This document shows positions 4,143-41,275 of a stretch of 64,000 bases of DNA, piece after piece (within the stretch, counting starts at the first letter, position 1; each line of letters starts with the position of its first letter). The DNA is from Eledone cirrhosa (Eukaryota): contig OZ024751.1 in assembly GCA_964016885.1 (NCBI GenBank), positions 558,001 through 622,000 of the forward strand, read 5' to 3'. A model generated the notes under the pieces. It did no database searches, was not told where the DNA came from, and was given only the letters and a program-made list of their open reading frames with translations. A program made the translations under genes and the position numbers.

Positions 4143-4227
4143 CTGTTGTCACCCACCAATAACATAAGTCGACAAGTTGAAGCTGTCGGATATATATTCC
4201 GGAAGAGAAAGAATCTTGCCCAAGGTT
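4143..4227 (+). pseudogene. Possible truncated FLYWCH N-terminal half (unit A), MULE-like
   Basis: LSPTNNISRQVEAVGYIFRKRKNLAQG resembles the S..G.....GY.Y.K start of FLYWCH; GGTTAG-rich subterminal-like tract at 3800-3895; no Cys/His half. Confidence 0.3.
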
Positions 4228-4781
4228 CCGATAAAACTTACATTCCATTCAATTTTATTTTATTGTCGAGTTTTCCTTCTCAATTTAATTCACTTACATT
4301 TTAATTGTTATTTTTATATACCTGAAGCGAAACACCTCCCTTTCGTCTGAAATATACCAATATTTTAAAGGTGTTCCTGTTTGAATTAGATCATTTTCAC
4401 GACTTATGGAGATAAAATAAGAAATTTGTAAAAAAAAAAATCTTTTAAAAAATAAAATCAATATTTTCAAACCGTCGTAATTGTTTATTTAATTTTTTTG
4501 TTCATTTTATTGATTTTTTGTCTGGGAGTTTCTTCTCTGAAGCCCTTCTGCTGTCTAGCTCTCCTGAGAGTTTCTTACCACTATATAAGTCCCACCTGAG
4601 AGGGGGCTGTGTAATTTCATGCACAACTGCTTTTGAATTAGATTAAAGATTAAGAAAGGTTTTTCATATATCGACCGATGGAAATCCTTGAACAGATCAT
4701 AGGTATTTCGGGTTTTACAAACATACACCCTCATCCAGGTGACCCAACCGAGGTTGGTCAAACCCCAGCATATGTCCAAGT

Positions 4782-5011
4782 CAGAGGCATAACTAGGGAA
4801 AATAGCGCCTATGGCAAGCAGTGAAATTGCGCCTCTGTCCAGCACTGTATTTTTACCTATCACCTAATAATTTACATAAATGGTTTAATGATCCAGCCAC
4901 CATAGTGTTCTCACCCATGATAGAGACAGATCATACATTTGAACGAGTTTCTCTTTTCACTCTCCTAGTCCAAGTGGCGCCCCCTTCATATGATGCCTAG
5001 TTACACTTCTG
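4782..5011. mobile_element. hAT-type MITE
   Basis: TIRs CAGAGGCATAACTAG / CTAGTTACACTTCTG; perfect 8-bp TSD GTCCAAGT at 4774-4781 and 5012-5019. Confidence 0.85.
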
Positions 5012-5529
5012 GTCCAAGTACTACTTATCTCAACCAAATACCTCCTTGATGCCCTCACTTGCTTCCACCTTGTTTTTCATGGCTCTCTTCCTGCTTGCTT
5101 CTGTGACATTCAGTGTTCTGTAGGTTGCGTAAAATAGGACGTTTATTTAGGACAAAAATGTAATTTTTTTTTATTTGAAAATTGAGGCTAGTCACGCTTG
5201 GGGATCCAACTGGATCAGTTGGAGACGGTTGCTTTTGACAGGGCCCGCTGGCGGGAGTGTTTGAGCACTCTGCCCCCACGACCTTCCCAGAAATAAGTGG
5301 GCGAAGAAGAAGAAAATTGAATCGCATTAATAGCTTTCACCGTATTTTTGACTACAGAAAATAGTCTAACAGGTCGTATAAGCCCCCAGAACTTGAGGGG
5401 GGGGGGGGCACCAACACGTGTGGGAATCGAACCCATACCTCGTATTTTTTTCCTTTCTGGGAGCTTATATGCCCTGTTATTATTAGACTATTTTCTAAAC
5501 ATTTGTTTATAATTAACAAGTCTGATTCA

Positions 5530-5940
5530 GTCTCTCGCTCATTCACACACACACAGACACACTCACACACACACACACACACACACACACTTATTTATAC
5601 ACACTGTTCACTCAAACTCTGTCTTACACATATATCTACACACACACACTCTCTCTCTATCTCACTCTCACACATTCATTCTTAAACACCGTCTCATTCA
5701 AAGTCTCTCTCTCTTTCTTTCTCCCACTCACACAAGCTCTCTCTCTCCCATTCACACACACTATCTCACTCTCACACACTCACTTCCACTGACCCTATCT
5801 CACACTCATTCATAAACAGTCTCACTCAAACTTTCTCTCTCTCTTTCTCTTTCTCACTCACACTTTCTCAACGCACACACACTATCTCACCCTCCCTCTT
5901 GCTCACCCACTCTCACACACACAATATCACTCAAACACAC
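5530..5940. repeat. Degenerate (CA)n/(CT)n tract
   Basis: Direct reading. Confidence 0.9.
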
Positions 5941-6059
5941 TGCAACGTAATTTACCTGTTAGTGCAGTAAATATATTCACTAAGTCTAGTGTGCTAACAA
6001 CAACACCTGTTGACTTGATATGACAACTTAAAAACGAGAATACTTAGCTCTCTCAGACG

Positions 6060-6660
6060 TTAATTCCACAAAAGATTAACGGAGACAACCTTGAAAAAAT
6101 ACCCCCCCCCCGCTTTTTCCAACATCCCCCCTTATTCCACGTCCGTTTATCCCCCCCCTTATTCCACCCCAGCTTATTCCATCTCCCTTATTCCGCCCTG
6201 CTTATTCCCCCCCCCCCTTATTCTTCCCCCTTCCTATTATTTGGGGCCCTAGGGTACAACTATTACTATTGTTAATAATCTTTTACAAGTCTACATCATT
6301 ACATGAAGTTGTTCTCTACACAGCACTAGCATCACTATTACTCTAATACTCTATTACGTGTTCCAGCCGACAGACTGAGGACATGCTGGGGCACTACCAC
6401 TATCTGGAAATGTTCCAATGATAAACTTATAAATGGTTACATCAGAAACGGATTTCATTTATGCGCCATTATGGTTAGCTCACTACCTTCCGGTCATTTA
6501 TCATTATGTAACAACACCTAGAGATTCTTTGGATATACCTTATTTCCGTGATTACTTTTCAATAACAATACGTATTCTTTTGTTTATGAGGTGCTGTATC
6601 CTCCGTCGGTTTCTACGATGAGCATTTAGTTGTTCAATTAATAGAACGTCCATTTCATAA
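6060..6660 (-). mobile_element. Probable MULE transposase C-terminal relic plus terminal repeat array
   Basis: Minus strand LLIEQLNAHRRNRRRIQHLINKRIRIVIEK resembles the C-terminus of animal MULE transposases; repeated CTTATTCC motif at 6130-6230 resembles a repetitive MULE TIR. Confidence 0.4.
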
Positions 6661-7052
6661 CTTTACGTCAGCTTTGTCCGCGGGGCGTAGCCCAAACACC
6701 GTCCCATGCTAGATCCAGAGCCCCTCACTCTCTCCCCCTTCCCTCTCATTTTCTCCCGTGACCCAAGAGTCCTTGCTTTCTCTCTCCCATTCCTCTCATT
6801 TATGGCATTTATAGTCCATTCCTCTACTTTCCCATACAGCCAGATCTGCCCTTCTTTAACCCTTCCCCCTTCCTCATTACTTCATTTTACATTTATCTTT
6901 CTTTTTCATATTTATGTAATCATCAATGGTTTTTAAGGCAACTTGTGTATATAAAATTGTATATATAAAATTGTATATATAAAATTGTATATATAAAATT
7001 GTATATATATAAAATTGTATATATATATATATATATATATATATATATATAT

Positions 7053-39217: not shown

Positions 39218-39652
39218 ATGAATAACAACATTTCGTATATCACAAGTATTAGGGGAAAGAAAAAAGCTTGCAACGATGGTTATATCTATGGTTTCGAGAA
39301 GAAAAGTAAGAAAGACGACCAACTGTATTTTTATGTATGTGAAAGACACAGATACGAGCAATGCCCGGCCAGAATACACGTGAAGTACGATATGATTGTT
39401 AAACGATCGCACCAACATACTCACGTTAGGCGTACACCAACTAGGGCTATAGAATTCGAACGTCAGATCAGAGAACGAGCTGCGAGCATGGTGCCCAGGA
39501 AAAAGATCAATAAACCAGCTTTTGTTGCAGTAATAATATCACCTGTACGTACAATCACTCTTTATTTTGTTTGTACTGCTTGTTATAAACATGAATACCT
39601 TCCTCCACATCTCTCTCTATATATATTAGAAAGTGAACAACACAATATATAA
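39218..39652 (+). CDS. FLYWCH zinc-finger ORF (unit D), open
   Basis: ITSIRGKKKACNDGYIYGFEK..YFYVCERHRYEQCPARIH..HQHTH..QIRERA; possible 5'UTR intron 38949-39193; possible weak phase-0 donor at 39529. Confidence 0.75.
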   Translation: MNNNISYITSIRGKKKACNDGYIYGFEKKSKKDDQLYFYVCERHRYEQCPARIHVKYDMIVKRSHQHTHVRRTPTRAIEFERQIRERAASMVPRKKINKPAFVAVIISPVRTITLYFVCTACYKHEYLPPHLSLYILESEQHNI

Positions 39653-39655
39653 CTA

Positions 39656-39723
39656 CTCCATTACCAAATGTTTCAGGACCCTAGACAGTATTAATATTTG
39701 TCTAGATCGTTCATCAGACAGAG
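39656..39723 (-). ncRNA. Type I hammerhead ribozyme motif inside an inverted-repeat element
   Basis: CTCTGT-CTGATGA-stem II (CTAGACA..TGTCTAG)-GAAA-CATTTGG-TA-ATGGAG; flanked by inverted ATATATAACTACTCCATTACCA arms. Confidence 0.55.
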
Positions 39724-39869
39724 ATGTTAAGAATAGAAAATATGAAAGGAGATGGTAATGGAGTAGTTATATATTATGTTGTTCACTTTCTAATTAAATA
39801 GCTCTGTTCTATACATAGAGCACTCTTTTTTCTTTTGCTTTTTCTTCGGAATTACCTAACACACACACA

Positions 39870-40110
39870 CATCATCATCATTTTACGTCCGCTTTTCCCT
39901 GCTTGCAAGGGTGGGACGGGTCCTATTCAGCACAGCATCTCTCTACTTGTCACGGTCCTTCGTCATCTCTTCCGTGATTATCAGCTATCTCAGGTCTGCT
40001 CTCACCACCGCCGCCCATGTTTTTCGTGGTCTTCCTCTACTACGTCTTCCTTCTACTGGGATTTCTTGGCACTTCTTTACCCAGCGATCACCCTCCATGC
40101 GCATCACATG
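39870..40110 (-). mobile_element. RTE LINE 3' end
   Basis: Reverse complement of 42680-42905 type end with (GAT)n tail. Confidence 0.8.
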
Positions 40111-40896
40111 GGATGTGGGGGTATATATACACATGAGGGCGGTGGGTTCGCAGAGTCATTTCGTTAGAATTTCGGACAATATTATTCCGGCTCTTTACTA
40201 TCTATCTATCTGTCTGTCGTTCTGTCTATCTAGCTGTCTGTCGCTCTGTCTATGTATCTGTTTGTCTGTCTATCCGCCCGTAAATATGATGATAAACATA
40301 TAATATACGTGCGGCTGTGATACTTTTGGCTGGGAAATTGATCGGTGTGAAAATACTGCTGGGAAATGTTACATATAAATGTTGAAGTGTATATGTGTAA
40401 CCAGGGAGTTTAATAAACTCCCAGTCCTTATGTTAGTATGCACGTGTGTGTGTATATATAAATTTAGGTAAAAATAACAAGTGGAAAAGTAGGTAAAAAT
40501 GACACAAGTGGTAGTAGCAGTAGTGGTAGCCGTAGTCCTAGTAATAGTAGCAGTGGTTGTTGTGGTAGTAGTAGCAGTGGTGTTGGTGGTTCCCAATAGT
40601 GTATGTTTCAATAAACATACTTTTTATCTTTTCCCAGCTGCTGTTTAATTACAAGTGTTAACCTTGCCCCCCCCCCCCCCCCCCGTCACAGAATTCCCAA
40701 AGGAATTAATTCTTTGGCCCTAAAGCCTTAATACCCCTTTCTCTTTCTGCCAATTCCTTTGTACCATTTTTTTTATAAACGAAATCATTTGTACTCCAGG
40801 CACAAAAGTGTGATGACGTTAAGAAGCTTAAAAAACATTTGAAATATATTAATTCTTTTTTGAAGTTTTTAGCTTATAATTTGTAATAACCTCATC

Positions 40897-41275
40897 ATGG
40901 AAGTCATATTAAGTAATAAAGGAAAAGAGATTTGCTTCCAAGGATACATGTATACAAAACAGATTGTAAGATCAACTACTATCAGATGGAGATATGTTAA
41001 GAGAACATCTTTTTGTAAAGGTACCATGACCCTGATATGACTGATCTGGAACCAGCTAAAAACCACAACCACGCTCCTGATTATGCAGCTATTTTAGCCA
41101 CAAAGTGCATCAAAAACATGAAGAGAAAAGCAGCAGAAACAGAAGATCAACCTAACCAGAATTACAGCAATAACCTGGATGCCTTACCAGCTGAAGCAAA
41201 GGTGTTAATTCCAAGTGAGGAAACCTATAAAGAGAAACTTGTGTAACCAAAGATCAAAACTCTATCCACAAGTAC
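40897..41275 (+). pseudogene. FLYWCH/MULE transposase N-terminus (unit E), frameshifted
   Basis: MEVILSNKGKEICFQGYMYTK..IRWRYVKRTSFCKGTM (fs) NHNHAPD..IKNMKRKAAETEDQP..LIPSEETYK (fs) RNLCNQR; first Cys replaced by Tyr; acceptor TTTTTAG 24 nt before ATG. Confidence 0.75.

Follow-up and report, generated by a model that had tools for sequence, protein, structure and literature searches.

Results and discussion

The window analysed here comprises 64,000 nucleotides of the genome of the octopod Eledone cirrhosa (GCA_964016885.1, contig OZ024751.1, forward strand, positions 558,001 to 622,000). It contains three exons encoding FLYWCH zinc fingers, the intact units C and D and the broken unit B, which match alternative first coding exons of a single octopod BTB gene whose isoforms are likely regulators with interchangeable transposon-derived heads. 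We place the probability of this reading at about 80%. Concerning its two parts, a gene structure made of transposon-derived alternative first exons on one BTB body is almost certain, and a role of the isoforms as transcription regulators is probable.

FLYWCH units and the shared BTB body

An earlier note, made from the sequence alone, had described four clear FLYWCH units (B, C, D and E) and a weak fragment (A). Based on Pfam searches (PF04500, cut-off 23.6 bits), units C (54.9 bits), D (41.7 bits) and the middle piece of B (32.1 bits) were recovered with their Cys/His ligands kept, in B when it is read through its insertions. The description did not hold for E, which scored 18.0 bits and is frameshifted, or for A, which gave no match. 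A custom profile made from 18 FLYWCH sequences and applied unfiltered to 464 kb returned B, C, D and E, all on the + strand, and nothing besides them below an E value of 1. As the note had stated, each unit begins with its own ATG at the domain start and none carries a DDE core: tblastn searches with three MULE transposase queries revealed no DDE region across the 464 kb around the units, and a DDE query taken from these transposases matched 4 of the 18 FLYWCH loci elsewhere. At least 18 PF04500 matches were found genome-wide (64 candidates scored), and three of the 18 fall in the window, all on the + strand and within 17 kb of a 3.0-Gb genome, a clustering above chance.

Units C and D are single-copy sequences without terminal inverted repeats (TIRs) or DDE region. 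In a DNA search skipping common words, C matched itself, one 65% stretch of 268 nt and one short flank sequence, and D matched only itself inside the exon. No TIRs flanking C and D were seen among the five longest pairs listed per region, which were A/T-run pairs or other repeats, and old TIRs may have decayed. A high-copy hairpin element of 170 bp, with arms of 42 nt that are 98% complementary, lies at 39625-39794, just 3' of the D donor.

The top long homologue of unit C is isoform X4 of O. bimaculoides LOC106879774, in which a FLYWCH domain is followed by a BTB domain. This gene and its orthologues in O. sinensis and O. vulgaris (LOC115220336) produce isoforms with one C-terminal body and a variable head: three heads are of FLYWCH type, two are DUF3504 (Crypton) domains, one, in O. 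sinensis only, is of CENP-B type, and others are short. The Octopus body maps only downstream of the E. cirrhosa units, to three shared exons located 111-170 kb beyond the FLYWCH heads, and no BTB exon was found in the 200 kb upstream of the units. The earlier note had sought the common part upstream, found no support for it there and on that ground doubted its own model. The order on the + strand is B, C, linker 1, D, linker 2, Crypton 1, Crypton 2 and the shared exons (Table 1), and identity of the conserved exons of the window to Octopus ranges from 65 to 93%. Because the heads are all co-linear and sense, cis-splicing suffices and trans-splicing is not required.

The best donor was of phase 0 in all four intact heads (scoring used approximate weights), fitting the phase-0 acceptors, and the four models, C and D with the linker and shared exons and the two Crypton heads, were free of internal stops (638, 645, 899 and 904 aa), with the BTB at residues ~300-420 in the FLYWCH isoforms. 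As the earlier note described, an AG precedes the ATG of C, D and E by 11-24 nt, and B and D have in-frame stops upstream. Stops of this kind and unevenness of the acceptor phases are what one would expect if the units are first coding exons whose phase-0 donors feed a downstream BTB. The 3' limit of D had been placed at 39652 and must be moved to its splice donor at 39544. The two Crypton exons scored 24.5 and 27.6 bits for DUF3504, just under the 29.7 cut-off, and have no Tyr after HxxR at the distance expected for the catalytic residue.

Apart from units B to E and the two Crypton exons, the 344 kb 5' of shared exon 1 yielded a single candidate head, a Tc1-type helix-turn-helix (HTH) ~96 kb upstream of the window. 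This search applied eight local profiles in six frames and Pfam to 100 + strand open reading frames (ORFs), obtained from 444 ATG ORFs after position, complexity and repeat filters; two ORFs crossing the locus border were dropped and C11:1-358000 lay outside the search (C11 is the contig given above).

The linker exon was duplicated together with its flanks, the two copies being 87% identical over 462 bp (35690-36143 and 64989-65441). About three copies of a 20-bp unit precede linker copy 1, and an array of the same unit longer than 1 kb (62885 to beyond 64000) precedes copy 2. Several copies of long interspersed nuclear elements, which we take to be of the RTE class, lie in the intron that separates D from linker 2 (41404-44214, 48954-51883 and 59338-60509). 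The shorter, duplicated linker exon and the broken unit B are among the differences from Octopus.

Table 1. Predicted features of the window and of the 200 kb fetched downstream (window numbering, values above 64000 lying in the downstream part; C11 position = window position + 558000)
Feature	Position	Strand	Remarks
Unit B, broken alternative first exon (FLYWCH)	16672-23197	+	host pieces 16672-16690, 22445-22592, 23093-23197
Long terminal repeat (LTR) retrotransposon inside B	16691-22440	-	5750 bp; 469-bp LTRs 98.9% identical; TG...CA ends; 4-bp target duplication
Solo-LTR-like insertion in B	22593-23088		496 bp; TG...CA ends; 4-bp target duplication
Unit C, intact alternative first coding exon	32936-33235	+	FLYWCH + helical tail; donor AAG|GTAAGG, phase 0; orthologue of Octopus X4 head
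Linker exon copy 1	35789-35902	+	38 codons, phase 0/0; predicted to pair with C, and in the past with B
Unit D, intact alternative first coding exon	39218-39544	+	FLYWCH + tail; donor CCT|GTACGT, phase 0; orthologue of Octopus X3 head
Intron after D	39545-64000	+	leaves the window; gene continues beyond
Unit E	40690-41273	+	frameshifted MULE relic within intron after D
Linker exon copy 2	65089-65196	+	joined to D in public contig
Crypton/DUF3504 first exon 1	69039-70235	+	82% to Octopus X1 head; phase-0 donor
Crypton/DUF3504 first exon 2	118446-119657	+	93% to Octopus X2 head; phase-0 donor
Shared exon 1	144317-144618	+	C11:702317
Shared exon 2	148313-148454	+	first part of BTB
Shared exon 3	202030-203088	+	remaining BTB (74/80 identical to Octopus) and stop

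Orthology, phylogeny and selection

A tree of 27 FLYWCH rows, with locus L013 left out and B entered as its middle piece only, grouped C with Octopus X4 (support 99/91), D with X3 (99/95) and B with X5/X6 (88/86), and C nested beside MULE transposases. A single origin of the nine B, C and D rows was rejected by the approximately unbiased test (p-AU 1.7e-6), so that B, C and D likely represent three separate captures from different MULE lineages. The earlier proposal that this locus collects FLYWCH domains of separate MULE lineages as alternative exons thus stands for B, C and D, which correspond to Octopus isoforms, and fails for E and A.

The supplement of PMC10027918, in its available part, places the Octopus orthologues of C and D on one scaffold, in the same order and on the same strand, 4.65 kb apart against 6.3 kb here, the synteny that the earlier note had suggested looking for. 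By eye, the 5' ends of Octopus cDNAs match non-coding DNA upstream of both units (17 nt at 32817 for C and 38893-39047 for D), which fits first exons.

The finger cores of C and D are 82% and 75% identical to Octopus, with same-exon tails at 31% and 26% and linkers at 34-44%. Over 65 codons, C differs from its Octopus counterpart by ~22 synonymous and 14 non-synonymous changes, a hand count giving a ratio of non-synonymous to synonymous rates (dN/dS) of 0.07-0.10. Judging from dN/dS for C, and from the identity of core against tail only for D, the captured FLYWCH core is under purifying selection. The earlier note had listed high copy number, TIRs and a dN/dS near 1 as signs against captured exons; for C and D neither high copy number nor TIRs were seen, and for C the ratio is far from 1.

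A MULE transposase of the shark Scyliorhinus canicula (LOC119965989, P0002) shows 62% identity to unit C over 96% of its length. Horizontal transfer of the MULE lineage of C among aquatic animals may lie behind this likeness.

Transcripts and promoters

A search of sequencing runs returned four runs of one study, none of them recorded as RNA. One 617-nt contig (run X1, record 3) covers 39064-39544 and continues directly into a linker exon, and its differences from linker copy 1 are those of copy 2. In this public contig D is spliced over 25.5 kb to linker copy 2 with GT-AG ends. The 154 nt before the D ATG are unspliced in it, so the AG preceding that ATG was not used there. A contig of a second run (X2, record 13) passes straight through the D donor unspliced.

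The observed/expected CpG ratio upstream of the five heads is 0.82-1.52, against 0-0.42 for four internal exons. Values exceeded the 464-kb regional median for 5 of 5 heads here and for all 18 heads tested at C4:234.7 Mb, and did not do so for the four internal exons or for E. This composition is a soft hint that the heads have separate promoters.

Unit B and the sequences that are not exons

The reconstruction of B proposed in the earlier note (16672-23200) was confirmed across two insertions. B corresponds to the head of O. bimaculoides isoform X5 and O. sinensis X6, with 36 of 70 core residues identical; its finger is complete when read across both insertions and its old donor is now in phase 2, out of frame. 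Comparison with the octopod isoforms identifies B as a third alternative first exon of the BTB gene, which a frameshift and the insertion of two young LTR elements have disrupted. The coding region of the larger insertion is split over several separate frames, and from its reverse transcriptase, RNaseH and integrase motifs we take it to be of Ty3/Gypsy type. The 496-bp insertion is a high-copy sequence, with 39 other matches at 94-97% among 40 scored. An intron was considered for this ~500-bp insert and ruled out by its high copy number, LTR-like nature and target duplication.

Unit E has a Tyr in place of the first Cys and a shifted frame, and in-frame stops precede its ATG too. A sibling 83% identical, including non-coding flank, was located at G000:C1:437.45 Mb, and no counterpart of E was found among the Octopus isoforms examined. 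Run X1 shows zero depth at 40832-41125, which is uninformative on its own. These features mark E as a dead MULE relic and, on present evidence, no exon. Concerning the weak fragment A (4143), it matched no Pfam family, its best score to the custom profile was 1.0 bit, and 27 of 200 random windows scored equally or better; we regard it as a chance resemblance. Elsewhere in the window, fragmented Rep/helicase frames on the - strand (11300-15300) presumably belong to a Helitron-like element, a class assigned from their motifs.

The BTB subfamily across the genome

The BTB exon matched the genome at 22 places; one weak hit, within a frame of 2206 codons, was discarded and 21 were kept, which gives a subfamily of at least 21 members. 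FLYWCH domains lie in sense orientation within 200 kb upstream of a member in 8 of 18 matches (4 of 14 loci), and DUF3504 domains in 5 of 9 (4 of 6 loci), a target equal to 0.05% of the two-stranded genome. With eight local profiles, partly built from frames of the same regions, all 46 transposon-type domains detected in 13 regions comprising 19 members were on the strand of the BTB; five regions had none. The O. sinensis Tigger head was not found at the present locus with the query used. A protein-cluster atlas search returned generic BTB clusters only.

Two arrays stand out. At G000:C4:234.70-234.84 Mb (L086-L100), the local profiles detected 19 intact sense heads before two BTB paralogues, of THAP, CENP-B/Tc5, psq, Crypton, STPR, Brinker-pogo and FLYWCH types, to which Pfam adds a weak THAP and a weak zf-C17orf113; the best donors there were of phase 0 in 19 of 19 cases. 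At G000:C4:285.92-286.08 Mb (L059-L078), at least six tandem BTB paralogues are accompanied by CG-1, THAP, FLYWCH, Brinker-pogo, Tigger and STPR heads, one FLYWCH having stops, and donor phases were looser (8 of 13 in phase 1). The unplaced contig C581 carries a ninth FLYWCH (G000:C581:27462, L003) that matches by eye the head of Octopus LOC115209932; its likely place is therefore 5' of the gene at C4:234.78 Mb.

THAP, CENP-B/Tc5, STPR, FLYWCH, CG-1 and DUF3504 heads occur on the same BTB type in database entries including Octopus, Argonauta and Sepia, and the named family clusters, 9 of 10 looked up, were all from these three genera. One family model (P0055) combines THAP, BTB and a DDE_3 region of Tc1 type within a single frame, which may reflect a wrongly joined model or an ongoing capture. 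A DUF3504 domain in a 617-codon open frame lies at G000:C11:4120659 with no member of the BTB family nearby.

Proposed mechanism and alternative explanations

We propose that captures of this kind would begin with a MULE landing in sense orientation in the long 5' region of the BTB gene. The transposase's own start, and likely its promoter, would be kept, and a donor just beyond the finger and helix would remove the DDE half. Selection would then retain the finger while the tail drifts. A separate promoter for each intact head is predicted to pick the head, C and D being spliced through the short linker to the BTB exons. In BTB transcription factors the BTB pairs molecules and recruits cofactors. 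Here the head would read DNA, the BTB would pair isoforms and recruit cofactors, and the choice of head would set the targets. The predicted score for a homodimer of this BTB was 0.70, and one control gave 0.51. Heads also turn over, with B lost in this lineage, E representing uncaptured raw material and the Tigger head of O. sinensis not found here. If so, the locus displays the full cycle: old fixed Crypton heads, the younger working C and D, the dying B and raw material such as E. Extended to coleoids, we find it somewhat more plausible than otherwise that a BTB subfamily of at least 20 genes has long 5' regions that trap DNA transposons and turn MULE, Crypton, pogo/Tigger, THAP, STPR and CG-1 domains into promoter-bearing first exons on a shared BTB body. 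Such a subfamily would serve as a generator of transcription factors, with heads of isoforms and paralogues brought together in dimers and gained or lost between lineages.

Several observations weigh against reading C, D and B as alternative first exons of a regulator gene. The RNA nature of run X1 was deduced from the splice joint itself, in one contig of one study; record 3 was read up to its last 28 letters and the joint into shared exon 1 is not covered. No spliced contig was found for C, only one unspliced piece of 151 nt, and linker copy 1 had no contig of its own. An acceptor-like tract of good quality precedes the ATG of C and leaves room for an upstream non-coding exon. The node of B falls below the starred support level, long branches limit the tree, and the dN/dS value is one pairwise hand count on one exon. 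In addition, the shark MULE transposase compares with C at 77% in the core and 37% in the tail, near the Octopus values. Since identity alone is insufficient for this reason, the orthology of C is carried by position, order, flank match and tree.

The earlier note had kept independent MULE decay as a plausible explanation. On that account C and D would be decayed insertions in an intron, with occasional leaky splicing. MULEs tend toward insertion in or near genes, according to the available part of PMC6446971, the spliced contig exists for D alone, and E, as the only one of the units, does fit decay. For C and D the account is largely refuted and hardly tenable: both have Octopus orthologues and combine intact frames and the same order with the core-versus-tail contrast, a dN/dS of ~0.1, single copies and the lack of TIRs and DDE.

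Two other alternatives accept the gene structure and assign it a different job. The isoforms could serve in transposon defence, with each head bound to the termini of its cognate element and the BTB as the silencer, so that the array would record past invasions. Heads from several superfamilies and their turnover between lineages agree with this prediction, and the loss of B could follow the disappearance of its target family. Yet in the DNA search described above neither C nor D had a close transposon relative in the genome, although their fingers are constrained. The Crypton heads are 82-93% conserved with respect to Octopus, and the family has heads of Crypton type in cuttlefish as well, both of which hint at long-standing host roles. 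We consider defence, including the TIR-binding repressors suggested in the earlier note, rather unlikely, and less likely than a general regulator. More improbable still, the heads could bind protein or RNA rather than DNA and the BTB recruit Cullin-3, making the isoforms substrate adaptors. By sequence, the BTB is matched best in the PDB by gigaxonin and KLHL proteins; FLYWCH may bind DNA, RNA or protein (PMC11426971, available part); and the authors of PMC12062965, in the part available, propose protein-interaction platforms for nematode F-box genes that captured a mariner HTH. However, neither BACK nor Kelch was found in seven BTB proteins scanned, the BTBs of BACH1, ZBTB and CP190 match in the same weak score range, and the heads of the family have many folds, unrelated to one another, that share the binding of nucleic acids. 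The regulator with interchangeable DNA-binding heads is thus the reading that we prefer.

Comparison with known systems

The isoforms are already in databases, unnamed. Database models of the orthologue, Octopus LOC106879774/LOC115220336, unite a single BTB body with heads that are FLYWCH, Crypton or short, and are named 'uncharacterized'. The nearest publication is PMC10027918, whose Table 1 includes the C and D orthologues as two 'BTB-FLYWCH' rows under one LOC number; its available text notes Octopus THAP and CENP-B with BTB, reads the BTB as a transposon component and does not describe alternative first exons. In the literature searched, which covered few subscription journals, there was no description of first-exon arrays on cephalopod BTB genes. 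The locus links the transposon load of cephalopods with regulatory novelty through named exons, junctions and lineage-specific gains and losses.

Captured transposase domains on host genes are known from vertebrates. In KCTD1 isoform b, a Crypton-derived DUF3504 exon upstream of a BTB gene yields a new isoform, and KIAA1958 has two alternative DUF3504 exons (PMC3212892, available part). KCTD1b differs from the octopod gene in having one captured head and no array, and KCTD chains were absent (0 of 32) from the PDB matches of the octopod BTB. The tetrapod fusions of KRABINER type are alike in that a transposase DNA-binding domain on its own exon is spliced to a host effector and born as an alternative isoform. 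They are unlike in that most of them (8 of 9 cases) use an acceptor immediately 5' of the transposase frame, and often KRAB (10.1101/2020.05.07.082677, available part). At the octopod locus the transposase start is kept, the donor lies downstream and captures accumulate at one locus. If the proposal is correct, the capture route, an own start plus a new donor, would differ from the usual tetrapod one, which uses an upstream acceptor.

The closest parallel in design is that of mod(mdg4) and lola, where a single BTB likewise serves a large set of alternative DNA-binding exons; in mod(mdg4) these give at least 30 isoforms, most of them with FLYWCH (PMC11426971, available part). Those genes have an N-terminal BTB of TTK type and variable C-terminal exons, partly joined by trans-splicing, and the authors, in that part of the same source, did not find TTK-type BTBs in Mollusca. 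In contrast, the octopod gene has a variable first coding exon, an internal BTB and heads from several transposon superfamilies. It is not a member of that group and would work like mod(mdg4)/lola reversed, presumably convergent and not homologous as a system. If true, the mod(mdg4)/lola design has been invented independently a second time, with its polarity reversed, so that promoter choice, and not 3' splice choice, picks the DNA-binding domain.

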